Assembly: GCA_942493035.1 (NCBI GenBank)
Contig: OW818666.1
Location: 3,028,702-3,092,701 of the forward strand
From: an uncultured Spirochaetota bacterium
GTDB lineage: Bacteria > Spirochaetota > UBA4802 > UBA5550
Direction: 5' to 3'
DNA: 64,000 bases
In this document: in pieces, positions 4,017 to 59,607 of the stretch
Layout: each line of letters begins with the position of its first letter
Position numbering within the stretch: position 1 is the first letter of the stretch
The notes under the pieces: generated by a model
The model's database searches: none
What the model saw: only the letters and a program-made list of their open reading frames with translations
Told to the model about the DNA's origin: nothing
Position numbers and translations under genes: made by a program

Positions 4017-4571
4017 ATGAAACCTTCGTATAACATCCATATCGGCGAATACTACGCGAGCAAGACTCCGGCAATTATTACAACAATTCTCGGCCCATGC
4101 GTGGCAGTGTGCATCTATGATAAGACAAAAATGATCGGCGGGATGAACCACATCCTTATGCCTGGAGATGCCCCTGACAGAGAAAATATAATCGACTCAC
4201 GATATGGCATAAATGCCATGGAACTTCTGATTAACCAGATGATGAAACTCGGCGCCAACAGATATAAACTTACAGCAAAAGTTTTCGGAGGAGCAGCAAT
4301 ACTCTCCTCTATTTCCGGCGAATTCAACATGGGTATAAGAAATGTTGAATCGGTAATACAATTTCTTGAGATAGAAAAAATTCCTATTATCAATTATAAT
4401 TTCGGAGGATTTGATTCCAGAAGAATTTACTATCACTCCGACACCGGTGAGGTTCTGATAAAAAGAATCAAATCAAGAGAAGCACTTACTGAAGACTCAG
4501 TTGTCCGGGAAAGACGGCTTGAGGCTGAAAAAAGAATTAAGAAAACACCGTCAGTTATATTTTTCGACTGA
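4017..4571 (+). CDS. cheD: CheD-like chemoreceptor glutamine deamidase, paralog 1.
   Basis: The ILGPCVAVCIYD and GGMNHILMPGD motifs match the CheD catalytic Cys/His region. RBS-like AGGAAAAAG precedes the ATG. ~70% identical to the ORF at 32014-32568. Confidence 0.8.
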   Translation: MKPSYNIHIGEYYASKTPAIITTILGPCVAVCIYDKTKMIGGMNHILMPGDAPDRENIIDSRYGINAMELLINQMMKLGANRYKLTAKVFGGAAILSSISGEFNMGIRNVESVIQFLEIEKIPIINYNFGGFDSRRIYYHSDTGEVLIKRIKSREALTEDSVVRERRLEAEKRIKKTPSVIFFD

Positions 4572-6782: not shown

Positions 6783-6853
6783 GTAGAGACGCAGCATTCT
6801 GCGTCTCTACTAAATCCTATAATCCCTTAATCTGCTTAATCCTAATTCAGACA
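6783..6853. repeat. Partial copy of the TGTCTGAAT foldback element family. A 28-bp perfect palindrome is followed by the conserved right arm AAATCCTATAATCCCTTAATCTGCTTAATCCTAATTCAGACA.
   Basis: GTAGAGACGCAGCATTCTGCGTCTCTAC palindrome at 6783-6810. The right-arm TIR supplies the V-stop (GTCTGA) of the kinase gene ending at 6847. Confidence 0.6.
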
Positions 6854-8007: not shown

Positions 8008-8086
8008 ATCATTACCTTTTTGAATTTACTATTTGTCTTCCTTCTCCTCCCCATGTAGAGAAGGAATGAGGTCACGCATCCCATTT

Positions 8087-8215
8087 TGTCTGAATTAGGA
8101 TTTATAGGATTAGCGGATTAAAGGATTTCCATGAAACTGTAGGCTCGTAGCGCGCTACGAGCCTACAGTTTCTAAATCCTATAATCCTCTAATCTGCTTA
8201 ATCCTAATTCAGACA
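8087..8215. repeat. Complete foldback (MITE-like) element. Terminal inverted repeats TGTCTGAATTAGGATT / AATCCTAATTCAGACA with internal TAATCC-type subrepeats and a central 40-bp perfect palindrome (8133-8172).
   Basis: Left arm TGTCTGAATTAGGATTTATAGGATTAGCGGATTAAAGGATTT and right arm are near-reverse-complements. Centre GAAACTGTAGGCTCGTAGCGCGCTACGAGCCTACAGTTTC is perfectly palindromic. The right TIR supplies GTCTGA (Val-stop) of the 8209-11223 kinase. Confidence 0.7.
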
Positions 8216-14499: not shown

Positions 14500-14620
14500 A
14501 TTTATGCCTCGATTTTAATATTAGTCTAAATTAAAATTTATTTCCGGAGTTGAGTACTGTGATTCACCTCACCATATGCAGCCGCCAAACTCATGACTTG
14601 TACCTGCCCGCATCTTAACA

Positions 14621-14738
14621 GCCCCCTAAATCCCCCGGAGGGGGACTTCGTAAAATATCGCAAAATTCATTCATTTTTGACATAATTTTTTCAAAACAAT
14701 GTCTTTTAAGTCCCCCTCCGGGGGGTTGGGGGGCTTAG
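14621..14738. repeat. IR-flanked element. CCCCCGGAGGGGGACTT and AAGTCCCCCTCCGGGGG arms flank a 57-bp AT-rich spacer that contains a TTGACA hexamer.
   Basis: Read directly from the sequence. Same architecture as 24837-24939: GC-rich IR arms of the CCCCCGGAGGGGG type flanking a ~56-bp AT-rich spacer. Confidence 0.5.
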
Positions 14739-14761: not shown

Positions 14762-17680
14762 TTACTCCGTAAACTCAAATCTCTGCAGCTCTACAAAAAA
14801 AGTACTCCCCTTACCCGGTTCAGATTCAACGCGAACTCTTCCATTATGCTTTTCAGCAATCCTTTTAACAATACTTAATCCCAGACCATCCCCTGTATCA
14901 GGCTGACTGGAATCCACCTTATAGAATATATCCCATATTTTTTCAAGATGCCTCTGGTCAATACCGGAACCATTATCCCGCATAGAATATACCACCCTCC
15001 TGTATTCAATACCGGCAGTAATTTCAATTATTAATTGTCTGCTCTTGTCACGATACTTTATTGCATTACCGATTATGTTAGAAAAAAGCTGATTAAGAAG
15101 ATTTTCATCACCATAACAAGGCGGGAGGTCTGATATATTTACAATAGCATTCAATTCAGTTAGTTGAAAATTGTAATTACCTATAATAGTATGTAGCAGC
15201 TGACTGGTATCAATTTTTTTAATGCTCATCAATGTCCGTCCGGTCCGTGACAAATGGAGAAGTCCGGCAAGGAGTGTATCCATTTTCGTTACACTGGCGA
15301 AAATAAATTTAAGTGACTTAGGAATATCCTCATCTATGATATGATCTAAATCAGATTTAATCCCGGGAGATATTGATGAATCAGTAATTATAGTTTTAAT
15401 TGAATCCGCATGTTTTTGCAGACGCCTGCTGAATCCCTGAATATTTACAAGGGGTGATCTCAAGTCGTGAGATGCAATATACAGATAATTCTCAAGCTCT
15501 TCGTTCTTGGCAAAAATCTCATTCTGTATCTCTCTGATACCGGTTATATCCGTGGTAATTGTCGCGAAATTATTTTTTTTCGGGGACACTGCCGACACGG
15601 AAAAATATTTATCCAGCGGTTCAAAATATGTTGTATATTCATACGGAACACCTGTCGTGGCAACCCGTGCATACTCATCGATAAACGGTGCAGTCCCGGT
15701 CTGAAATACGTCAGTAGCAAGTTTTCCTGAAGCATCACTTTTTTCAATTCCGGTAATTGCGGTGAACGCATTATTACAATCGGTTATCCGGTAATTAACC
15801 GCTTCACCTTTCTCATCAAACACCAGTTCATGAAGCACTACCATCTCGGTCATTGAGCTGAAGAGAGTATTCAGTTTCTCTTCACTCTCACGAAGGGCTT
15901 CCTCTACATGTTTGCTCTCTGTGATATCTCTTGCAGTCCCTTCAAATCCTATGACAGTGCCGGATTCATTCCGCAATGGAACTGCACTTGAAGTATGCCA
16001 GCACCACGTCCCATCTAAGTGACATACCCGGTATTCCACACCCTCCTGCCGCTCACCGGTTTCAATCACCTTCTTAAGCCACTCAGCACATGCCGGGACA
16101 TCATCGGGATGAACAAAAGGCACAAAGGACTGACCAACAACCTGATTTAACGGGTGACCAAGGAGTGCTGTCCATGCAGGTGAAACAAAAGTAAATATTC
16201 CATCTGAAGTAAGGGTGTAAATAATATCGTGGCTGTTTTCGACAAGCTGGCGAAACTTCTCCTCACTATCATGCAGGGCTTTCTCTGCCTCCTTGCGTGC
16301 AGTAATGTCAGTAGCAGTAGTAAGATTCATTACTACAATTCCGTTTTCATCTTTGATAGGATTTGCCTTTGCGAGAAAATACATAATTCTGTCGGGCAAT
16401 GGAACTGTAACTTCCAGAGACCGGGCTTCCCCGGTTTCGAAAACCTGTCTGTTAGTTTCCTGCCTGTAATCAGCATGCTCTTTGGGATAAACATCCCAGA
16501 AAGTTTTCCCTATAAAATATTCAGGTTTCTGCCCGAAGGTAGAAGCAAAGACATTATTTGCAAATTGATACTCCCCTTTTTCATTTACGCAGAAGACCAC
16601 ATCACTTGTATTTTCAATAAGTGAACGGTACTTCAATTCACTCTCGCGCAAGGCAGTTTCGATCCTTTTTCGATCACTGATGTCGCGTGTCACACTCATT
16701 ATATGAGGCACACCCTGAATATTAATGATCTTGGCAGATATCAATCCGGTTACCGGAGTGCCGTCTTTACGCTGAAAAACAACCTCTAAGTTTTCGCATA
16801 TACCTCTTTCACGCAAAGCAGAAACTACTTTAAGCCGATCTTCCGGATATTTCCAGAGATTAATTTCAAGTGATGATTTACCTGTTACATCTTTTCGGGT
16901 ATAACCGGTCAGAGTAGAGAATCCTTCATTTACCCGGATAAAAAAACCGTCGTCAATCTGTGTGATCAAAACCGAATCGGGATTAGTGTTGAAAAAAAGT
17001 TCCAGGTTTTCCTTGTCCTCGCTGTTTTCAGAATTCAGCCGCTGATTGAGCATTATTATAAGACCAAATGTCACCAGAATCCCTGAGATAAATAGAAATA
17101 CAAATGAAATCGCCTGCATCATAGCTGGAGTAAATAAGCTTTCTACGGGATCAGCAGCAATTGTTATAATGGAACGAAAAGAAAAGAAACAGCCCTGAGT
17201 AAAAAAAAGTACCGTGTTGAAATTTGCAGAAGCTTCAACAGAAACAGTCTTGTAAAAAAATATACTCCATGCGATGAGAAATGAAACGGCTCCAACGATA
17301 CCATAAATAATTACTGTCCTGGATGTTATATAATCATTAAAGTATGTAAAATAAATAAATGATAAAAGATAAACAGAAAAAATTGAAATAATAAGTCCAC
17401 TATTCTCTTTCTTATCAAAAAACCGCATCACCCCAATATATAAAAAAACTGTTCCCGCCAGGATCAGTGCGTTTGCCAGAATGATTGAAATCATCTTTAC
17501 AGCAATAATACCGCGAAGAAAAAGAAAAATATACCCGGAAGACATTGAGGTAAAACCGAGCAGCCACCATCCAACACCCTTGTAGGCTTCATTAACCCTG
17601 TATTGCAGAAAGAGAGCAATAACCTGTAAAAAATTTGTGATGCTAAGTACAATTACCATGGTGAATATATCAATTTTCAT
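14762..17680 (-). CDS. Membrane sensor histidine kinase of the classic HisKA/HATPase_c type. N-terminal polytopic membrane domain followed by multiple PAS domains.
   Basis: 972 aa. Hydrophobic N-terminal ~200 aa with at least 6 predicted helices. PAS linkers (VTRDISDRKR, TARDITESKHVEEAL). H-box ASHDLRSPLVNIQGF. N-box NAIKY. G-boxes DNGSGI...GDGLGLSIV. Confidence 0.85.
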   Translation of the reverse strand: MKIDIFTMVIVLSITNFLQVIALFLQYRVNEAYKGVGWWLLGFTSMSSGYIFLFLRGIIAVKMISIILANALILAGTVFLYIGVMRFFDKKENSGLIISIFSVYLLSFIYFTYFNDYITSRTVIIYGIVGAVSFLIAWSIFFYKTVSVEASANFNTVLFFTQGCFFSFRSIITIAADPVESLFTPAMMQAISFVFLFISGILVTFGLIIMLNQRLNSENSEDKENLELFFNTNPDSVLITQIDDGFFIRVNEGFSTLTGYTRKDVTGKSSLEINLWKYPEDRLKVVSALRERGICENLEVVFQRKDGTPVTGLISAKIINIQGVPHIMSVTRDISDRKRIETALRESELKYRSLIENTSDVVFCVNEKGEYQFANNVFASTFGQKPEYFIGKTFWDVYPKEHADYRQETNRQVFETGEARSLEVTVPLPDRIMYFLAKANPIKDENGIVVMNLTTATDITARKEAEKALHDSEEKFRQLVENSHDIIYTLTSDGIFTFVSPAWTALLGHPLNQVVGQSFVPFVHPDDVPACAEWLKKVIETGERQEGVEYRVCHLDGTWCWHTSSAVPLRNESGTVIGFEGTARDITESKHVEEALRESEEKLNTLFSSMTEMVVLHELVFDEKGEAVNYRITDCNNAFTAITGIEKSDASGKLATDVFQTGTAPFIDEYARVATTGVPYEYTTYFEPLDKYFSVSAVSPKKNNFATITTDITGIREIQNEIFAKNEELENYLYIASHDLRSPLVNIQGFSRRLQKHADSIKTIITDSSISPGIKSDLDHIIDEDIPKSLKFIFASVTKMDTLLAGLLHLSRTGRTLMSIKKIDTSQLLHTIIGNYNFQLTELNAIVNISDLPPCYGDENLLNQLFSNIIGNAIKYRDKSRQLIIEITAGIEYRRVVYSMRDNGSGIDQRHLEKIWDIFYKVDSSQPDTGDGLGLSIVKRIAEKHNGRVRVESEPGKGSTFFVELQRFEFTE

Positions 17681-17689
17681 TTATTTCTC

Positions 17690-17886
17690 CGGTAGACATT
17701 ATCGATCATTCTGCGTCCCCGCCCCCTCTGGCCCCTGGCCATCTCCCCCTTGATGAGAAGGTGGAGAGAATATAAAATCTTTTCCGTACACCCCTTGCCC
17801 CATCTCATCATGGGCGACGAACAGGATGTTCTAGTGTCGGGTGCGGACAGGACGTCCAAAATGCACCCGACGAAAGGTGCCCGTAG
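17690..17886. repeat. Left part of a GC-rich REP-like composite repeat (family shared with 31596-31940, 32581-32760 and 49135-49215). Truncated by the IS insertion.
   Basis: Contains the CATCTCCCCCTTGATGAGAAGGTGGAGAG module and the 36-nt bulged hairpin 17836-17871, and ends ...CGACGAAAGGTGCCCG. The intact units elsewhere continue GCGGGCGGATAGGGGC, which here resumes at 19341. Confidence 0.6.
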
Positions 17887-17995
17887 GGTTTACTATGCTA
17901 GAACAGAGAGGTTAATTTATTTGAAAATCTAAAAAAGAAGGCTACCTTAGAAGTGCAAAAGAAGTAAAACAAAAATCAACAAAGGAGGTAGCCTT

Positions 17996-19069
17996 ATGAG
18001 TAATTTAATGAACTATATAGTTAAAAACAAGGAAATTTTTATTGGTCTTGAAGATTCTAAAAAGACTTGGAAAGTATGTGTACGAAGCGGAAAAGTAACA
18101 ATTCATGAGGCGAGTATGCCAGCTGAATATGAAGTACTTAAAAACTATTTTAACAACAAATTTGCGGATTGCCTCATACATGTAATGTATGAGGCCGGAT
18201 TTAGGGGATTTGGATTACACGATCAGTTGAAATCTGACGGATATGATTGTATTGTTACGCCTCCACATACTGTAACTCAAGAGAAAACACAACGGCAGAA
18301 AAATGACCGTATAGACTGCCGGAGGCTGGCAAAGAATCTAGAAAGTGGCGATTACCATATCTGCCACGTTCCAGATCGAAAGCGCCGTGAAGACCGCCAG
18401 ATATCACGTTTATATGAGCAATTACAACGCGATATAACAAGGGAATGTAACAGGATCCGAAGGGCATTGGAGTTTCACGGCTTAGACAATCAGTTTCAGG
18501 GAGGCAGTTGGTATCGAACACATTATAAAAAAGCATACGAACGTATTCCCGAGATGGATATTTCTTTATCACTGAAATTTGACTTCAGTATTATGTTCAA
18601 TGAATTGTTTCATCTCTGGGAACTTCAGAAACAGGTGCTGAAAGAAATTCATATATTGGCAAAGTCAGAAGCATACAAAGAAGATGTTGACTTGCTAAAA
18701 AGCGCACCTGGTATCGGTATTCTGACAGCAATCAGACTTGTTCTGGAGTGGGGAAGTCTTGACAGGTTTCACAATAAAGCTGAATTCTCAAGTTTTCTGG
18801 GATTGATCCCAAGTGAATATTCATCAGGTGAAACGGAACGGAAAGGTCATATTACAAAACAGGGAAATAAATTAGTACGGTCATGGCTTGTTGAGTGCGC
18901 ATGGCGAGCATTGAAATATGATCCGGTACTACTGCAAATATTTAATAATGTTGTTAACAGTTCGGGAAGCAGAAAGAAAGCGATTGTTGCAGTTGCAAGA
19001 AAACTGGCTATTCGTTTACGGACTCTGTTAATTCATAGAACACCATATACGGTTGGTTTAGTTCATTGA
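17996..19069 (+). CDS. IS110-family transposase: DEDD RuvC-like N-terminal domain plus Transposase_20 C-terminal domain.
   Basis: 357 aa. N-terminus FIGLEDSKKTWKVCV. C-terminal SFLGLIPSEYSSGETERKGHITKQGNKLVRSWLVECAW motif typical of the IS110/IS116/IS902 family. Strong SD AAAGGAGGT 7 nt upstream. Confidence 0.9.
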   Translation: MSNLMNYIVKNKEIFIGLEDSKKTWKVCVRSGKVTIHEASMPAEYEVLKNYFNNKFADCLIHVMYEAGFRGFGLHDQLKSDGYDCIVTPPHTVTQEKTQRQKNDRIDCRRLAKNLESGDYHICHVPDRKRREDRQISRLYEQLQRDITRECNRIRRALEFHGLDNQFQGGSWYRTHYKKAYERIPEMDISLSLKFDFSIMFNELFHLWELQKQVLKEIHILAKSEAYKEDVDLLKSAPGIGILTAIRLVLEWGSLDRFHNKAEFSSFLGLIPSEYSSGETERKGHITKQGNKLVRSWLVECAWRALKYDPVLLQIFNNVVNSSGSRKKAIVAVARKLAIRLRTLLIHRTPYTVGLVH

Positions 19070-19340
19070 TGTTTAAGGATATTATAACAAACAAGGAGCT
19101 GTACATTACAATGCTTTATTTAACAATTTGGTGCATGATGTCCTATCCGCTGTCCCTTCTGAGGACGTCACAGGGTTTATCAGCACCATTAAAAGCTAAA
19201 GAATAAATAAACTGTACACAAGTACGAATAGCGGCATATAAAGCGTTTTAATTGCAGGCTGCCTGGTTATTAAAAAAAAGGAGCACGCTAAAAGAAAAAA
19301 ATTTAAAAAAAGGTAGCACTTAAATTTGACTTTCTCATAG
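19070..19340 (+). ncRNA. Candidate IS1111-type bridge (guide) RNA region in the 3' non-coding end of the IS.
   Basis: 270-bp non-coding tail. Contains GGTGC-ATGATGT-CCTATCCGC (19130-19150), where CCTATCCGC is the exact reverse complement of the target right-flank GCGGATAGG. Also contains AGGACGTC (19165-19172), identical to the target hairpin loop region at 17849-17856. Inference only. Confidence 0.35.
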
Positions 19341-19368
19341 CGGCGGATAGGGGCGGCGGATAAGGGCG

Positions 19369-20964
19369 TCACACATCAAACTCCAGCACAAACGTTGTCC
19401 CTTCGCCACGTTCAATCCTTATAACTCCACCTATCTGTTCAGTCAGCATATTAACAAGCTCCAGTCCAAAACCTCTTGTATTCTGAAGACTCACAGCCTC
19501 CGGAATTCCAACACCGTCATCCTGTACTTTAATAACAACATGATTATCAATCATTGACACAGACATAATTATCGTGCCGTGATCTCTCCCTGTAAATGCA
19601 TACTTCATCATATTTGTAAGCAGTTCATTAACTATAATTCCCAGAGGTGTGAGCTTATTTATATTCAGTATAAAATCTTCAATATCAGTTTTAATCTCAA
19701 TTTTTGCTCTATCAATAAAACTACCGGTAATCTCTTCTGTCAAAGGCTGAAGATAATCCTTAACCGAAAGTTCACGAAAATTTTCCGTGCAGTACAATCT
19801 GTCATAAAGCATTATCATACTCTGAACGCGGCTCTCGGCATCACGGAGCGAGGCTGCGGCTGTCGGATTATCCTCAGCTGAGAGCTGCAGAGTGAGGAGT
19901 CCCTTTATTGTATTCATATTGTTTTTTATACGATGATGAACTTCTTTAAGAAGAAGCTCTTTTTCAAGCAGAAGATTCTGTATTTTCTCATCAGAAAATT
20001 TTCTCTCTGTAATATCACGGCCTATTCCAAGCACTCCTATCAGATGCCCTGTATTATCATACATCGGGGTTTTAATTGTATCAAGCATGGCCCGGTGTCC
20101 GTCATCGGCGAAGGTAATCCACTCTTCGTTACTGGTAGGTTTTCCAGCCACCATTGCCCTGCGGTCATTTTCCCGGAAGAAGTCAGCAAGCTCTTTATCT
20201 ACAAAATCATAATCCGTTTTCCCGATTATATCTTTAACCGCTGCACCAAAAAATCGCTCGAACATTGTGTTACATGCAAGATAAACACCATCTTTATCCT
20301 TAAGCCAGATAAGGTCCGGAATAGCCAGCAGCAGAGTGAGCAGATGACTTTCACTTTTATGAAGGGCTGACTCGCTGCTTTCCAGAGCATACATAAATCT
20401 GTTCCGTGACAGATTATCAGATATTATTTTCCCGATGAGAAGAGTCGCCAGCGGATATAAAATCATTACCGGCAGTGCAATTTTTTTCACAACAGTAACA
20501 GCAATATTCTGCGGTAGTGTAAACATCAGCAGAATCATTGAGACATGGACTAGAATACCTATACCGAGTAGATTCAATGCTGAAACTTCTTTATTCCTCA
20601 TAGTCGTTCTAAAATAAAAAAATAATCCTATGATGGTTGAAGATACAATAACCAGAATCCCGGTAAAGGCCCCTGCTCCGCCCTGAAGAACTCTTAAAGA
20701 TACAGTCATCACAAAAGCAACAGATGCAGATACTGGTCCGAAAAATAAACCGCACAAGCTTATTACCACAGACCTCCCGTCAAAGATCAGACCCGGCCCC
20801 ATGTTCAGCGGACGGAGCATACCAATCACAGCAATCCCTCCGAATAAAATACCCTGAAGGACAGAACCGGTCCGGCGATCCTTCCACCGCTCCCCGATAA
20901 AACCGGATATAACACTAAGCGCCGCAAGAAGCGCAAGATTATATATAAGATCAATGATTATCAT
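19369..20964 (-). CDS. Membrane sensor kinase: 5TM LytS-type N-terminal domain, PAS, HisKA_2 and HATPase.
   Basis: Start moved to the ATG at 20964 (AAGGAG SD 7 nt upstream). The upstream in-frame ATG at 21021 lies inside the foldback element TIR. Hydrophobic N-terminal ~190 aa. H-box EVHHRIKNNMNTIKGLL. G-box DDGVGIP...GFGLELV. Confidence 0.8.
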   Translation of the reverse strand: MIIIDLIYNLALLAALSVISGFIGERWKDRRTGSVLQGILFGGIAVIGMLRPLNMGPGLIFDGRSVVISLCGLFFGPVSASVAFVMTVSLRVLQGGAGAFTGILVIVSSTIIGLFFYFRTTMRNKEVSALNLLGIGILVHVSMILLMFTLPQNIAVTVVKKIALPVMILYPLATLLIGKIISDNLSRNRFMYALESSESALHKSESHLLTLLLAIPDLIWLKDKDGVYLACNTMFERFFGAAVKDIIGKTDYDFVDKELADFFRENDRRAMVAGKPTSNEEWITFADDGHRAMLDTIKTPMYDNTGHLIGVLGIGRDITERKFSDEKIQNLLLEKELLLKEVHHRIKNNMNTIKGLLTLQLSAEDNPTAAASLRDAESRVQSMIMLYDRLYCTENFRELSVKDYLQPLTEEITGSFIDRAKIEIKTDIEDFILNINKLTPLGIIVNELLTNMMKYAFTGRDHGTIIMSVSMIDNHVVIKVQDDGVGIPEAVSLQNTRGFGLELVNMLTEQIGGVIRIERGEGTTFVLEFDV

Positions 20965-21002
20965 GAAAAACTCCTTGTACCAAAAAATTCTCTCTATCCT
21001 TT

Positions 21003-21106
21003 TGTCTGAATCAGGATTCATAGGATTTAAAGATTAAAGGATGCGGTAAAATAAAACCCTCTCTAAATCCTATAATCCCTTAATATGCTTAATCCTGATT
21101 CAGACA
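21003..21106. repeat. Foldback element copy with both TIRs: TGTCTGAATCAGGATTCATAGGATTT ... AATCCTGATTCAGACA.
   Basis: The arms are reverse-complementary and flank ATGCGGTAAAATAAAACCCTCTC. The right TIR provides the stop codon (GTCTGA) of the 21100-24774 kinase. The left TIR creates a spurious upstream ATG for the 19369 gene. Confidence 0.65.
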
Positions 21107-24100
21107 ATATCAAACTCCAGCACAAACTTTGTCCCCTCGCCACGCTCTACTCTTATATGACCGCCGATCTGCTCTGTAAGTATACTTACAAGCTGCATAC
21201 CGAAACCCGCCGGTTTATTCTGATCAAAAGATTCAGGGAGTCCTTTACCATTATCCTGAATAACAATAGAAACCTTCCTTCCTGTAAGATTTGCAGATAT
21301 TGTAATCTTACAGCTGCTTCTTCCGCTGAACGCGTACTTCATAGTATTAGTCAGCAGTTCGTTAATAATTATACCTAAAGGCTGAAGAATCTTTACATCC
21401 AGAATAAAATCATCAATCTGCTTCTCAATCTTAACGGACATTTTATCGGGAAAATTTGCCAGAATTTCATCAATCAAAACAGGAAGATAATCTGAAACGG
21501 ACATCTTTTCAAAATCGGGGGAACGGTACAGCTTGTCATAGAGCACCATCATACTGAGAACCCGCCCCTCGGCATCAAACAGTACTTTCTTAATCTCCGG
21601 ATTATCCTGATCCTCACCCTGAATCCGGAGAAGATTTGAAATAGTACCCATGTTGTTCTTAATCCGGTGATGAACCTCTTTCAAAAGGAGTTCTTTTTCA
21701 GAGAGCAGATTTAAAACCTCATCCTCGACCTGTTTTCTCTGGACGATCTTCCACACCGCATCCATCATAAGATTAAGCTGACGGATATCAGATTCACTAT
21801 AATCGGTCTCTTTATTGGCTACACCAACAACTGATACAATATGCTCGTTACTGAATACCGGAATAGTAAGATATTTTTTCAGCGGATTATGCCCTTCCGG
21901 TAATCCTTTTTTATAAATATTCGATGCTTCAAAATCGTTTACCATAATCGGCTGTCTCTGCCGTACGGCTTCACCCCAAAGACCGGTTTTTGACAGCATA
22001 TAAATTGTCTGCTTTTCAACAACAGCACACTGTTTCATAACATCTTTTGACCATGTATTAAGAGAGAACTCCTCTCGATCTTCATCATAGAAATAAATAT
22101 ATCCGATTTTACTTCCGGTAAGTTTAATTGCCTCAGCAAGTGTATAATCGAGCAGATTCTGAATATTATCAGTTGAATGCTGATTAATACTCAGCAGACT
22201 CTCAAGCCGGGCTTCGTCGAGTTTAATCACCTCCTCAGCCTTTATACGGTCAGTAAGGTCAAGACCGCATGAATAATTTTTATCGCCGAGTGTTATATAG
22301 CCCCATGAAATATTTTTCTTCGAGCCGTCTTTACAGTTAACCACAACCTCCATCGGTTCAATCGATGTCTGAGTCTCTATTGCATGTATAACTCTTTCAT
22401 TCCATTCCTCTGAAATCTTTCGGCGATACTCTTCATCGGGATACGCAAGAGGCCACCACTCGGCAACAGAGGGGATATCCTCCATTGTATATCCGAACAA
22501 TTCAACCATTGTGGGATTAACATATTGTGTAACCTGTTCTATTCCGGTTGTGAGATGTATTGCAAGCGGGAGTGTATCGATAATTGCCTTGAATTTCTTT
22601 TCGCTCTCCCGAAGCGCCAGTTCTTTTGTCTGCAGATCTTCAGCAGTGGCAATAAGTTCTTCATTTGCAGCATCGAGCTCTTCCATGGCAGCGGTAAGCT
22701 CTTCGTTCGCCGCCTCCATCTCCTCCAGAGCAGTTTTCAGCTGATCATTTTTTGTCTTAATCTCATCTTCGGCAATTTTACGTTCTGTGATATCCTGAAT
22801 TATACCAACCATTCTCGGGCCATGAAGTGTATCTATGATTTCACCTTTTGCATTAACATATATGACCGTTCCGTCACGATGGATGACGCGATGCTGGACA
22901 TCGTACGGTATCCCTTCTTTTAATGCTCTTTCAATAAACGGGAAGATCAGACCTCCATCTTCCGGATGAACAGAATCTGCAAATGCCTCGAACAACGGTT
23001 TATCAGGATCAATATCGAACATACGGAAAAGTTCATCCGAACCCTCTACATGATTAGTAACAGGATCAAGACTGAAATGCCCGATTTTTCCAATACTTTG
23101 TGCCTTCTTCAGATAAAATTCATTCTGCCTGAGATTCTCACTTGATAACTTACGGTCTGTGATATCTATCTCTATACCATCCCATACCAGCGTATTATCG
23201 GCAAGACGACGCGGCGCCGATGTAATATAAACCCATATTATTTCGCCGGAAGGTTTTCTAATACGGGCCTCTTCAACGAACTGTGTCATATTTAAAATAG
23301 CAGTCTCTTCACGCTCAGCCAGCATTTTCTGATCCTCTTCAACGAACTGGCTATACAGCGCCATGGGGTTCTTCATCACTTCTGACGCAGTAACACCATG
23401 AAGCCGTTCAATTCCGGAACTTAGATAAGTGAATATCCGATCTTTACCATCTTTACCGGTATTAACCTGATATACAAATCCGCCGGGGAGATTATCACTC
23501 AATATTGACAGCTGATTCTGTCTTTCGATAAGAGTCTCTTCTGCCGATTTACGATCAGTTATATCCTCACCGGAACTTAATATTCCTTCAAAACTTCCAT
23601 CGGAATTATATAGAATGGTGTTATGCCAGGCGATTAACCGTTCCTCACCTTTTAATGTTAAAAGTTTATTCTCATAAAACTCTACAGAACGGATCTCACC
23701 AGTCATAATCATTTTAAAAACGTTCTTTATCTCTTCAACCATAGCTCCCGGAATAAAAGTATCAAACCAGTTCAGTCCAAGGATTTCCTCTCTTGAACCA
23801 CCCAGAATTTCACACCCTTTCCGGTTGATCATCTTAATCACTCCATTACAATCAAGAGCCATCATCATAACACCGGCAACTTCGAGATATTTTGCAGCAC
23901 GGTCACGTTCGGAGTTTAATATATTTTCAATCCTTTTAATTTCAGTTAAATCTCTAAACTCAACTGTACGTACCATTTTACCCTTATATGGCACATTTCT
24001 GGCTTCTAAACGAATAGGATATTCCTCTCCATTTTTGCGGACTCCAATCGCTTCATAAGGTTTTTCATAACCGGCTTTGATCTTTTCCAGCACCAGATCG

Positions 24101-24774: not shown

Positions 24775-24836
24775 ATAATGTTACTCCGGTAATTAGACTT
24801 TCTCTTTTACTTAAGATCTGCCTCGATTTTCTTACA

Positions 24837-24939
24837 GCCCCCACACCCCCGGAGGGGGCAAAGCGGAATACTTTAAAAAAACTAATCCCTACTACAATAC
24901 CCATTTATCCATCTTTGCCCCCTCCGGGGGTGCGGGGGC
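24837..24939. repeat. IR-flanked element. 27-bp arms GCCCCCACACCCCCGGAGGGGGCAAAG / CTTTGCCCCCTCCGGGGGTGCGGGGGC (1 mismatch) around a 49-bp AT-rich spacer.
   Basis: Read directly. Same GC-rich IR-arm type and ~50-bp AT-rich-spacer layout as 14621-14738, but with an unrelated spacer sequence. Lies between two kinase genes (stop at 24971, start at 24774). Confidence 0.55.
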
Positions 24940-24970
24940 GTCAAGTGTAAGCGCTGGTTAAGATAACACT

Positions 24971-31595: not shown

Positions 31596-31940
31596 GAAAT
31601 CTGCCACCCCGCCCCCACTGTCGCTCCCCCTCTGGCCTCTGGCCATCTCCCCCCTGGTGAAAGGGTGGAGAAAAACGCGGAATGTTTCGTATATTTGTTG
31701 AGACGCAGCATGCTGCGTATCTACAAATATACGTACACCTTTCACCATCTTACCATGGGGAAAGGTGCCTGGCGGGCGGATAGGGGCAGGGCGCCGAAAA
31801 AACACAAAACATTCCGAACTACCCTTTCACCATCTCACCATGGGCGACGAACAGGATGTTCTAGTGTCGAGTGCGTGCAGGACGCACAAATTGCACTCGA
31901 CGAAAGGTGCCCGGCGGGCGGATAGGGGCGAGGCGGGCCA
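31596..31940. repeat. Composite GC-rich REP-like repeat cluster in the divergent intergenic region between the kinase and cheD paralog 2.
   Basis: Contains CATCTCCCCCCTGGTGAAAGGGTGGAG, the ACGCAGCATGCTGCGT palindrome and three CACCATGGGG-GAAAGGTGCC units. Ends GGTGCCCGGCGGGCGGATAGGGGCGAGGCGGG. One unit carries the 36-nt bulged hairpin at 31865-31900. Confidence 0.65.
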
Positions 31941-32013
31941 CAAAAATTCTTATTGCATTAATCGCTGATTTTATCTATATTATAACTGCTACATAAAACT
32001 ATCAGAGAATAAG

Positions 32014-32568
32014 ATGAAACCCACAGTAAATATACATATTGGCGATTACTACTCCAGCAGAACACCCGTTGTTATAACTACAGTCCTGGGGCCATGCGCA
32101 GCAGTCTGCCTTTATGACGCGGATAATAAAATAGGAGGGATGAATCATATACTTCTTCCGGGAGATTGCCCCGCCGAAATGGGTGATGGTGATTCCAGAT
32201 ATGGTATAAATGCCATGGAACTTCTGATAAATCAGATGATGAAACTCGGAGCTAACCGCTACAAACTCACTGCAAAAATATTCGGAGGGGCGTCCATTCT
32301 CTCCACAGTATCTTCCGAGTTCTGCATGGGGATGAGAAATATCGAATTTGTAGTGGATTTTCTGTTAACAGAAAAAATACCAATACTCAACTACAATTTC
32401 GGAGGAGTAGACTCCCGGAGAATATTCTACCACACCGACACAAGCGACGTGCTTCTAAAAAGAATAAAATCAAGAGAAGCAATCAACGAATTTGCCCATG
32501 TCCAGCAGAGACGGCTCGACTTAGAGAAGAGGATAAAGAAGTCATCGAAAATTGTTTACTTTGACTGA
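32014..32568 (+). CDS. cheD: CheD-like chemoreceptor glutamine deamidase, paralog 2.
   Basis: VLGPCAAVCLYD and GGMNHILLPGD motifs. ~70% identical to the 4017-4571 product, with the same C-terminal extension KRIKSREA...RRL.LEKRIKK. Confidence 0.8.
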   Translation: MKPTVNIHIGDYYSSRTPVVITTVLGPCAAVCLYDADNKIGGMNHILLPGDCPAEMGDGDSRYGINAMELLINQMMKLGANRYKLTAKIFGGASILSTVSSEFCMGMRNIEFVVDFLLTEKIPILNYNFGGVDSRRIFYHTDTSDVLLKRIKSREAINEFAHVQQRRLDLEKRIKKSSKIVYFD

Positions 32569-32580
32569 GGAAGATAGAGA

Positions 32581-32760
32581 CGCCACACACCATGGCCGCA
32601 CCCGCCCCCTCTGTCGCGATGCGACATCTCCCCCCTGGTGAAAGGGTGAAGAAAAATGCGGAATATTTCGTATTACCCTTTCACCATCTCACCATGGGGA
32701 AAGGTGCCCGGCGGGCGGATAGGGGCGGGGCGTGGCGGAACCGTGCGAGCCAATGCAACT
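32581..32760. repeat. GC-rich REP-like repeat unit, same family as 31596-31940. Sits between the convergent cheD-like and giant kinase genes; likely terminator function.
   Basis: CGACATCTCCCCCCTGGTGAAAGGGTGAAG...TACCCTTTCACCATCTCACCATGGGGAAAGGTGCCCGGCGGGCGGATAGGGGCGGGGCG. 11-bp stem GGTGAAAGGGT/ACCCTTTCACC. Confidence 0.6.
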
Positions 32761-44739: not shown

Positions 44740-44908
44740 TTCTGAAAACTCAATATTTAATGGGGTAAAGGCCAGCCTTTTTTCGACATCCTACCGGTGC
44801 TGGCAGGCGAACATCGTGTTCGCTCGGGCGGTAGCCCCTTTCTAAGCCCCGCAGGGCTTCCTGCGGTCCCGGAAACGGAGTTTTTGGAACCGCCCTATAA
44901 TAAGTTAA
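44740..44908 (+). ncRNA. Unclassified structured leader-RNA candidate upstream of the acetolactate synthase gene. A closed multi-stem domain.
   Basis: Closing stem TTATAGGG...CCCTATAA. Internal stems GAGTT-ctgaa-AACTC, GCCAGC...GCTGGC, GGCGAACA-tcgt-GTTCGC (a 7-bp stem), GGGCGGT...ACCGCCC and CCGCAGG-gcttc-CTGCGG. GC content is well above the local background. Confidence 0.3.
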
Positions 44909-49134: not shown

Positions 49135-49215
49135 TCACTCCCTTCCCCTTCTCACCAAGGGGAAGGTGCCCAAAGGGCGGATGGGGAGGCGGATGGGGCG
49201 GTTCGGATGGGGGAC
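49135..49215. repeat. GC-rich REP-like repeat unit downstream of the HD-GYP gene. Same family as 31596-31940.
   Basis: TTCCCCTT-ctcacca-AGGGGAAGGTGCCCAAAGGGCGGATGGGGAGGCGGATGGGGCGG, compare CTCACCATGGGGAAAGGTGCCCGGCGGGCGGATAGGGGCGGGGCG. Confidence 0.55.
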
Positions 49216-49452
49216 AAACCACATCTATTCTCATTATTTAACACAATCTTTACACAACTGCACTTAATACCGGTTTGACAAAATTGTATCATTTTTATCT
49301 CATGATAACATCTGATATCGTATCCTCAAAACTCCGTTTCGAGGAAGGAGAGAGCCCTGCGGGACTTCTAAATGGGCTTCCACCACTTAAACCCTATTAA
49401 GATCAGGTTATCAGGACTGTCTTTAAAATAATAACATCCGGAGTAAACATAA

Positions 49453-52479: not shown

Positions 52480-52512
52480 CTCTCCCCCCCCTTAGTAAAA
52501 GGGGGTTATTTA
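52480..52512 (+). terminator. Terminator hairpin CCCCCCCCTTAG-taaaa-GGGGG after rluD.
   Basis: Shares the loop sequence TAGTAAAA with the ilvB terminator at 46726-46749. Confidence 0.5.
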
Positions 52513-52923
52513 AAACAAAACACTCTCCACTTTCTTATAGATACTTTTTGCAAATTCATAAAAAATTTTAGCGTCTTCAATATCCGGTTTCCCGTTTGGC
52601 ATCAAACCCAAATCTCCCGGGTATCTGGATTCGATGTAGAGCCTGTTCAAACTATCAAGAATATCATCTTCAATAATTTCCAAAAGATCCAATACCTGAC
52701 TTTTCAATAATATTAAGTCATGTTTTTTCGGTATTTTGCGGTTGTTATATTCAAGCATTGCTTTTAGTGATTTTTCTACTGCCTGTTGAGCATGAAAAGC
52801 GACCATATGTGTAAAATAATCATTATGAATTATCTCTTCAATTAACTTCAGATCATCAGACGCAGATTTTAGCCATTCAATTGCCATAGTTTTATTCATA
52901 ATAAAGATATTCCATTTTGACAT
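52510..52923 (-). CDS. hepT: HEPN-domain toxin (HepT-like) of a HEPN/MNT toxin-antitoxin pair.
   Basis: 137 aa. R-x5-H motif (NRKIPKKHD) and ESRYPGD. Overlaps the upstream nucleotidyltransferase gene. Confidence 0.7.
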   Translation of the reverse strand: MSKWNIFIMNKTMAIEWLKSASDDLKLIEEIIHNDYFTHMVAFHAQQAVEKSLKAMLEYNNRKIPKKHDLILLKSQVLDLLEIIEDDILDSLNRLYIESRYPGDLGLMPNGKPDIEDAKIFYEFAKSIYKKVESVLF

Positions 52924-53255
52924 ATCTCTCTGGAAAAAGAACTATCCAATTCTACGAACTTCTGATTCATCTGTTTTGTATGAACAATCAAATCAATAGG
53001 GACTTTACTTCTGATTCTTCTAATCTGCCTTGAAATTTTCAGGTATATTTCGTTTTTTTCACGCCAGTTGTTTGGCATAAAATCATCTTTTGTCACTACA
53101 TATAAATCAATGTCACTGTCGCTATCCGGATTGCCCCATGCATAGCTACCGAAAAGAATAACTTTTTCAGGGTCCATATTTTTCAGTGCTTCGATGATCT
53201 CAGTCCTGATATTGTCAGGTAATTTCATTATTATACCCTTTTTGATTCTTATCAT
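52896..53255 (-). CDS. mntA: Minimal nucleotidyltransferase antitoxin (MntA-like).
   Basis: LFGSYAWGNPDSDSDIDLYVV, the GS-x9-DxD nucleotidyltransferase motif. The start may instead be the internal ATG at 53228. Confidence 0.7.
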   Translation of the reverse strand: MIRIKKGIIMKLPDNIRTEIIEALKNMDPEKVILFGSYAWGNPDSDSDIDLYVVTKDDFMPNNWREKNEIYLKISRQIRRIRSKVPIDLIVHTKQMNQKFVELDSSFSREICQNGISLL

Positions 53256-59491: not shown

Positions 59492-59604
59492 CCGCAGGCT
59501 CTTGTCTTCTGTAGGCTCGTAGCGCGCTACGAGCCTACAGAAGACAAGAGCCTGCGGTTTTAAAATCTTATAATTTCATAATCATGCAAATCTTAATTCA
59601 GACA
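59492..59604. repeat. 66-bp perfect palindrome (59492-59557) followed by a foldback-family right arm AAAATCTTATAATTTCATAATCATGCAAATCTTAATTCAGACA.
   Basis: CCGCAGGCTCTTGTCTTCTGTAGGCTCGTAGCGCGCTACGAGCCTACAGAAGACAAGAGCCTGCGG. The core CTGTAGGCTCGTAGCGCGCTACGAGCCTACAG is identical to the 8133-8172 palindrome. Lies between convergent parB and phosphoesterase genes. Confidence 0.7.
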
Positions 59605-59607
59605 AAT

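Follow-up and report, generated by a model that had tools for sequence, protein, structure and literature searches.

The question raised by this locus is what kind of element keeps a hairpin paired while the letters of both its arms change. Two intergenic copies of a short repeat in a 64,000-nucleotide stretch of a Spirochaetota genome (hereafter the window) carry such a hairpin. An earlier note on this DNA had described them as an 85-bp REP-like unit, identical in both places except inside the hairpin and shaped by selection on a folded nucleic acid. The copies were therefore examined for their structure, their relatives in other genomes, the repeat that carries them and the role they might have.

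Two copies of a double-hairpin module

The two copies align without gaps over 17783-17883 and 31813-31913, the similarity ending at 17883 because an element of the IS110 family begins there. The 85-bp interval does not correspond to a natural unit, the conserved core being a module of 57 nt. Its two copies are listed below with their scores on R1, a covariance model built only from spirochaete copies.

17815-17871 (+): module copy 1, 57 nt, read from the sequence and its fold; CGAC, small hairpin at 17819-17831 (GAACA-GGA-TGTTC), linker TAGT and bulged hairpin at 17836-17871 (outer stem of 9 bp, inner stem GGAC/GTCC, loop AGGAC, 3' bulge AAAAT); R1 88.5 bits
31845-31901 (+): module copy 2, with inner stem GTGC/GCAC, an A:T pair in the outer stem and bulge AAATT; R1 89.6 bits

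A 5-nt asymmetric bulge separates the 9-bp from the 4-bp stem. The + strand presents the loops A-GGA-U and AGGAC, which read AUCCU and GUCCU on the - strand, and both of its GGA motifs (17824-17826 and 17850-17852 in copy 1) lie within predicted loops. Folding of either copy as RNA returned this structure with more stability than shuffled sequences (-24.1 and -21.8 kcal/mol; z -3.7 and -3.1), and folding as DNA gave the same result (z -4.3 and -4.0). The 25-mer CGACGAACAGGATGTTCTAGTGTCG is present at two places in the window, zero being expected.

Within the 85-bp interval the copies differ at eight positions, six of which are in the stems. As the earlier note had stated, every substitution in one arm is matched by a complementary one in the other, the six forming three fully compensated pairs (17840/17867, G:C to A:T; 17846/17856, G:C to T:A; 17847/17855, A:T to G:C). 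By a simple estimate, the chance that six stem substitutions would fall in exactly three pairs and restore Watson-Crick pairing is about 5e-5. The remaining two differences are an A/T change in the bulge (17861) and a T/C change at 17808; the latter falls outside the hairpin, so that the description of the copies as identical elsewhere is nearly, but not strictly, correct.

The small open reading frames noticed across the units (17750-17932 and 31765-31968) do exist. A protein search with the longer one, 31765-31968, returned just two database relatives, both of them translations of other repeat copies, and protein coding was rejected on this basis. A repeat pair of a diversity-generating retroelement was likewise rejected, the differences between the copies not being adenine-specific. 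Inspection by eye excluded self-cleaving ribozymes (hammerhead, twister) and an integron attC site, whose CUGAUGA...GAAA and RYYYAAC/GTTRRRY cores, respectively, are absent; neither had an Rfam match.

Further copies and covariation

Ten more copies, in two metagenome-assembled genomes (MAGs) labelled Spirochaetae or Spirochaetota, were recovered by scanning a genome collection with anchors placed outside the hairpins; three chance hits of the same scan (L003, L009 and L011) were left out. A metagenome scan contributed L015, and a look-up with the pseudo-ORF protein yielded L026 as its sole new locus, which brings the set to 12 extra copies and 14 of the spirochaete type in total.

Four inner-stem variants occur among these 14 copies (GGAC/GTCC, GTGC/GCAC, GGGC/GCCC and CGGC/GCCG), all of them complementary, and the outer stem exchanges G:C and A:T pairs. 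Loops, linker and CGAC flanks are nearly invariant while the stems change by compensation; on the - strand, the RUCCU loop is found in the large hairpin of 11 of the 14 and in the small hairpin of all 14. The covariation test suggested in the earlier note, performed over 13 copies, found 98.5% of the cells paired, in comparison with 26-44% in slid controls. Four pairs showed changes on both sides, and none of 500 shuffles reached the covariation score. Uncompensated stem changes were confined to two loci, L007, a visibly decaying copy with a mutated loop, and L026, with a single A.C mismatch. The observation named beforehand as fatal to a structural reading, uncompensated changes as common as compensated ones, was therefore not made. 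Selection on a folded nucleic acid and not on a protein is thus backed by independent copies with four complementary inner stems, and the module is almost certainly a structured element under selection.

Selection might act on stability alone. A generic REP-like stem-loop in a 3' untranslated region could shield mRNA from exonucleases or pause transcription, and the strongly conserved stems would fit this, as would the intergenic sites, many of which are at the 3' ends of genes or between convergent ones. Such a function leaves unaccounted for the near-invariant loops, linker, bulge position and CGAC flanks, which are kept with wholly different stems in unrelated genomes, and the hairpins lack a following U-run. 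We regard it as improbable. Scans around the window copies placed promoter and terminator signals at background level, with no U-run after the hairpins. The copies lie in both orientations relative to neighboring genes, four of them between convergent genes, and therefore one cis-regulatory role cannot fit all of them.

Conservation at the cheD locus

Copy 2 lies upstream of cheD, 113 nt from its start codon (32014). A syntenic locus, L005, has its module end at the same distance of 113 nt before the cheD start codon. The CheD proteins of the two loci are 94% identical and their fourfold-degenerate sites agree at 38 of 73 positions (52%), whereas the module agrees at 50 of 57 (P about 1e-8); four of the seven module differences at L005 make up two compensated pairs. 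Conservation of the module amid 52% fourfold identity points to strong purifying selection or to continuing homogenization among copies, either of which may have kept it at this locus.

The host repeat

The module is carried by a larger repeat, an imperfect palindrome of roughly 150-250 bp that is dispersed, intergenic and mosaic and is shared by a small set of Spirochaetota genomes. Its C-rich A arm is followed by a spacer of about 25 nt and then by a B arm that ends in GAAAGGTGCCCG..GGGCGGATAGGGGCGG; uninterrupted B-arm tails read GAAAGGTGCCCG(N2-4)GGGCGGATAGGGGCGG. Five B-arm units were counted in the 64-kb window, where the host repeats are arranged as follows.

17717-17814 (+): host repeat enclosing copy 1, from comparison with full elements; short-form A arm without the module at about 17717-17768 (ccccgccccctctggcc..ccatctccccc..ggtggag), then the spacer, then the 5' part of the B arm at 17790-17814 (..ccatctcatcatggg)
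17872-17886 (+): tail of the B arm, GAAAGGTGCCCG plus TAG, forming the left target flank of the IS110 insertion
19341-19368 (+): remainder of the interrupted B-arm tail (CGGCGGATAGGGGCGGCGGATAAGGGCG), compared with other tails
31607-31935 (+): composite host repeat around copy 2, from repeat comparison; short A arm (31607-31672), spacer with an extra palindrome (31688-31733), module-less short-form B unit (31736-31792) and long-form B arm with the module (31821-31935)
32597-32738 (+): complete short-form host repeat, both arms lacking the module, folding as one long hairpin (-73.8 kcal/mol, z -4.4)
49140-49215 (+): degenerate short-form B arm with tandem GGCGGATGGGG tail units

The short-form B units (31736-31792, 32675-32735 and the degenerate 49140-49215) have CCATGGG followed directly by GAAAGGTGCC. 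The long form differs by a 57-nt block between GGG and GAAAGG, CGAC-GAACAGGATGTTC-TAGT-(bulged hairpin), with no flanking duplication. At L005, the site orthologous to 32597-32738 holds a long-form element. The A arms of L008 and L010 contain a diverged 57-nt module, inverted and in mirror position (R1 47-48 bits); the module can therefore be present or absent in either arm, and it is an optional cassette in each. As is typical of REP sequences and REPINs, the dispersed intergenic palindromes include inverted pairs (L008, L010), the full-form element of L008 folding as one long hairpin (-125 kcal/mol, z -9.3). The same tail follows a different repeat type in L002, so that the repeats, like BIMEs, are built as mosaics of modules. 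The name 'REP-like' given to the unit was thus loosely right, but the hairpin is part of a 57-nt cassette with the architecture of Bacillaceae-1 (see below), set in a larger palindromic mosaic repeat. A search of viral contigs and PLSDB found no true matches, and a phage or plasmid origin was rejected.

The IS110-family insertion

The B-arm tail of copy 1 is interrupted by an insertion sequence with the following parts.

17887-19340 (+): IS110-family insertion sequence, about 1454 bp, TAG at both junctions, each boundary ambiguous by 3 nt
17996-19069 (+): IS110-family transposase ORF (Pfam DEDD_Tnp_IS110 and Transposase_20)
19125-19190 (+): 3' non-coding stem-loop of the IS, carrying CCTATCCGC (19142-19150) and AGGGTTTA (19172-19179)

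The junctions (CCCG-TAG/../TAG-CGGCGGATAGG) were placed with the help of uninterrupted tails such as GGTGCCCGTAGGGCGGATAGGGG in L010, which puts the insertion point at the TAG of CCCG-TAG-GGCGG (also written CCCG-TAG-GGCGGATAGG), in the G-rich tail of the repeat. The 3' non-coding part of the IS folds better than shuffles (z -2.7). Of its two short segments, CCTATCCGC is a 9-nt complement of the right target flank GCGGATAGG (19343-19351) and AGGGTTTA is identical to the IS left end (17885-17892); we infer that they are candidate target and donor guides of a bridge RNA. An exact database look-up of the transposase returned no record, and the window and collected loci contain no second copy of this IS.

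The earlier note had raised the possibility that the hairpin itself is the recognition or target site of the neighboring IS110 recombinase. An IS110 element does adjoin copy 1, and a second, different one adjoins the copy at L015, but neither the insertion nor the guide complementarity falls within the hairpin. The window IS sits about 13 nt 3' of it, its stem-loop complements the tail and not the hairpin, the L015 element is inserted in the palindrome of the other (A) arm, and there is no IS near copy 2 or near 12 other copies. This proposal did not hold up, and we consider it highly improbable. With one insertion in a B-arm tail and the other in an A arm, the IS elements therefore target the repeat rather than the hairpin, and the repeat serves as a landing pad for the IS110 family. 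The window offers a clean example of such a landing, with candidate guide segments in the IS.

Relation to Bacillaceae-1

Bacillaceae-1 (RF01690) was described as two hairpins with RUCCU loops, hinting at the binding of a homodimeric protein (Weinberg et al., 2010; PMC2864571). Its discoverers were themselves unsure of the strand. B. subtilis has eight copies, and in the published alignment the B. licheniformis and B. subtilis copies lie inside a unit of roughly 190 nt with inverted-repeat ends, UCAGCGUG..ACCC and GGGU..CACGCUGA (PMC2864571, Bacillaceae-1.sto part 1). It would seem, therefore, that the Rfam motif forms the core of a larger dispersed repeat; a double hairpin set within such a palindromic, dispersed unit is a layout that Bacillus shares with the spirochaete copies. 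This Bacillus unit is presumably the 190-bp repeat of the 1997 B. subtilis genome paper.

The metagenome scan, which used the internal 21-mer GAACAGGATGTTCTARTKTCG, showed that this architecture also occurs in unrelated contexts. At L012 and L016, the GC content is 38%. In class B (L014, L017 and L022), the module forms the exact 5' edge of a conserved unit, and in class C (L013, L018-L021, L023 and L024) it lies within a conserved non-coding region of roughly 330 nt with other covarying hairpins. L012 and L016 reach 40.8 bits on RF01690 on the opposite strand (gathering threshold 35), and R1 scores them at 52 bits (E 4e-11), all metagenomic relatives falling between 34 and 52 bits. Over 28 family members, eight pairs and 58 cells have double changes, and distant relatives have entirely different stems that are still complementary.

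The window has no match to RF01690 at the gathering threshold; at E<=10, searches of 17600-19400, 31790-31930 and L006 100-450 gave only noise, and the window copies are therefore classed as a new variant rather than as members. Both terminal loops read RUCCU, and the asymmetric bulge and covarying stems are present. The described range of the family is Bacillaceae/Bacillales, whereas the copies from the genome collection reside in MAGs labelled Spirochaetae or Spirochaetota. Overall, the module is quite probably related to Bacillaceae-1. The best description is a Bacillaceae-1-like cassette of two hairpins, carried by a mosaic, palindromic repeat of Spirochaetota, with an IS110 element beside copy 1.

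The class C region, which has no Rfam match, occurs in differing gene contexts at L013 4377-4636, L018 1028-1287, L019 367-626, L020 5737-5996, L023 5417-5676 and L024 120-379. It includes a long perfect covarying hairpin, a module with AGGGAU loops and a third site, CCAGGACAC. In L024, the loop of the large hairpin has an insertion of about 55 nt.

This distribution bears on whether the module acts at the level of DNA. Its hairpins, in single-stranded or cruciform form, might be recognized by a mobilizing or copying enzyme encoded elsewhere (HUH/RAYT-type or another recombinase) or by a replication or repair factor, in which case the compensatory changes would keep the repeat transposable and would not serve the host. 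In each of four separate lineages, and in Bacillus as well, the module always sits inside dispersed multi-copy elements whose arms are inverted repeats; it is present or absent as an exact 57-nt block in both arms with no target duplication, and it coincides with the 5' edge of the class B unit. Moreover, an identical 21-mer in very different genomes suggests horizontal spread, the wobble pairs favor neither strand, and the hairpins are stable as DNA too. On the enzyme side, no Y1/HUH transposase was seen in the window or the loci, a weak negative: Pfam identified no RAYT/IS200-like gene among the 37 window ORFs, and a tblastn search of the window and collected loci, with an approximate IS200 TnpA query, gave no match, so that a RAYT or IS200 partner was not found. 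The loops here are conserved across phyla, unlike REP/RAYT pairs, which as a rule vary from one species to the next. At cheD, the upstream copy was kept through near-saturating synonymous divergence, which is unexpected of a purely selfish repeat unless gene conversion is frequent. A DNA-level element is accordingly held to be possible but rather doubtful.

Possible roles of the module

The most likely role, proposed tentatively from the modelled fold, is that of a docking site for a dimeric protein, with the module acting as RNA. The transcript of a neighboring gene would read through the repeat and the module would fold by itself, presenting two identical loop motifs about 23 nt apart to a dimeric RNA-binding protein. 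The occurrence of two identical loop motifs on adjacent hairpins fits recognition by a dimer.

If the GGA strand is the one transcribed, the leading candidate for this protein would be CsrA, an assignment that we rate as possible but rather doubtful. Should the + strand be active, the loops would be GGA hairpins of the CsrA-binding kind. The copy 113 nt upstream of cheD would then make this mRNA a target of CsrA, with the many remaining copies serving as decoys. The SELEX consensus of CsrA is ACARGGAUGU, and a spacing of about 23 nt is in the range where one CsrA dimer bridges two sites. Two GGA motifs in hairpin loops, as predicted by folding, stand at such a bridgeable spacing in the module. 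The class C loops ACAGGGAUGU fit the consensus, with the third GGA site in CCAGGACAC. The reverse complement of Bacillaceae-1 has also been matched to the CsrA-binding motif (Gardner and Eldai, 2015).

Other observations count against CsrA or weigh on the strand. The loop variant with CGA in place of GGA (ACACGATGT) recurs in intact copies, namely the spirochaete A-arm modules of L008 and L010, L012 333-389 and a possible distant relative in the window:

44771-44826 (-): GAACA-CGA-TGTTC and a second hairpin with a UAGGAU-containing interior; weak (R1 22 bits, E 0.002; DNA fold not significant)

Such a loop change would be expected to prevent binding by CsrA. Folding of full-length elements also predicts that the small GGA hairpin pairs with its inverted partner and does not stay free. 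No csrA gene was seen in the roughly 200 kb examined, a small part of any genome. Strand signals are mixed. On the GGA strand, G.U pairs are found in class C, in intact copies, and in L021, L023 and L012b; A.C mismatches, which are G.U on the other strand, are found in L007, L022 and L026.

These signals bear on a second RNA-level explanation, in which the other strand, in the Rfam orientation, would be the active RNA. As a trans-acting small RNA, it would use its RUCCU loops as mimics of the anti-Shine-Dalgarno sequence to base-pair with ribosome-binding sites, or would bind another dimeric protein. The orientation is that of the RF01690 model, and L012 and L016 carry, about 45 nt downstream of the module on the RUCCU strand, a good intrinsic terminator of canonical form (CTTGGC-GCAA-GCCAAG-UUUUGUUUU). 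The only one-sided stem changes of the spirochaete copies (L007, L026) are G.U there; yet the G.U pairs of class C, L021, L023 and L012b become A.C. The strand doubt of the discoverers and the background-level promoter and terminator signals of the spirochaete copies speak against it as well, and we judge this explanation unlikely.

Returning to a dimeric protein docking on the module, a broader view can be put forward only speculatively. The Bacillaceae-1 double hairpin would be the core of cross-phylum, non-autonomous dispersed elements that move a protein-docking or recombinase-recognition structure, and not a small RNA of Bacillaceae; here it would be a portable cassette placing transcripts such as that of cheD under a global RNA-binding regulator like CsrA. 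We consider this doubtful.

Other features of the window

A motif of roughly 60 nt (AAAACTCCGTTTC..GCCCTGCGGG.CTT..AAA.GGGCT) is present in two copies, neither with an Rfam match. One (49328-49392, +) closely precedes an isocitrate/isopropylmalate dehydrogenase-family gene (49453). The other (44840-44905, -) is beside a gene for a TPP enzyme, acetolactate-synthase-like (44959), on the opposite strand, and the possible module relative at 44771-44826 (-) is directly downstream of it. The motif may be a leader or a small RNA. A scan of the whole window against Rfam gave no match at the gathering thresholds.

Mosaic repeats are unusually common in this genome. Other intergenic palindromic repeats of the window fall into at least two families (14620-14735 and 24836-24940; 6812-6853, 8085-8215, 21002-21107 and 59563-59606; 8137-8168 and 59492-59557). 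One has CCCCCGGAGGGGG arms, and another has AAATCCTATAATCC..TTAATCCTAATTCAGACA arms flanking perfect palindromes CTGTAGGCTCGTAGCG/CGCTACGAGCCTACAG.

Among the genes, at least nine paralogous PAS/HisKA_2 sensor and hybrid kinases are densely arrayed over 4622-38185 and share blocks of 60-80% nucleotide identity. There are two CheD paralogs (4017-4571 and 32014-32568). Adjacent HEPN-domain and nucleotidyltransferase genes at 52510-53255 (-) have the usual layout of a HEPN/MNT toxin-antitoxin pair.

Comparison with known systems

With the REP, BIME and REPIN sequences of proteobacteria, the host repeat shares short, dispersed, intergenic imperfect palindromes, inverted pairs that form a long hairpin (L008, L010) and mosaic modules. 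REP sequences are preferred insertion sites of IS110-family elements such as IS621, a preference paralleled by the IS110 insertions described here. In contrast to REPs, which are species-specific, the module is conserved across phyla and no RAYT was found; moreover, its conserved parts are the loops and linker and not a 5' GTAG, and it is an optional cassette.

Miniature inverted-repeat elements (MITEs) with cargo, such as the Correia elements of Neisseria, are similar in being non-coding, multi-copy and intergenic, in having inverted-repeat arms, which are present here, and in occurring in either orientation; they too may add RNA structure to neighboring transcripts. The difference is that the arms here are degenerate and made of interchangeable modules, with ends too degenerate for calling a target-site duplication, none having been identified, and with no parent transposon seen.

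CsrA/RsmA-binding RNAs (CsrB, RsmY/Z and the predicted TwoAYGGAY, RF01731) resemble the module in having GGA in the loops of short hairpins and sites about 23 nt apart. As opposed to these RNAs, the module has just two sites, and its small hairpin has a 3-nt GGA loop, one base less than the SELEX consensus; CGA loop variants also exist.

Bacillaceae-1 itself has the same plan of two adjacent hairpins, the first with an asymmetric bulge, joined by a 3-4-nt linker, with covarying stems and with loops GUCCU and AUCCU on one strand, AGGAC and AGGAU on the other. Both are multi-copy in many gene contexts, the Bacillus inverted-repeat unit of about 190 nt is comparable to the palindromic carrier described here, and sequences with the exact 21-mer core of the window pass the RF01690 threshold. 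The module differs in an outer stem of 9 instead of 7 bp and an inner stem of 4 instead of 5 bp, in the lack of a second small bulge, and in another bulge sequence, carrier repeat and host (Spirochaetota).

The finding extends a known but uncharacterized family and is no new kind of system. Few bacterial RNA motifs that lack an assigned function are as abundant as Bacillaceae-1, whose very strand is in doubt. The same architecture, with an identical core of 21-25 nt, in Spirochaetota and at least two other uncultured lineages makes the family wider than Bacillaceae. Taken with the constant position of the module within dispersed palindromic repeats and its strong constraint at an orthologous locus, this suggests a link between a conserved RNA or DNA structure and repeat mobility, and the copies collected here are comparative material for deciding the strand and the partner of Bacillaceae-1.
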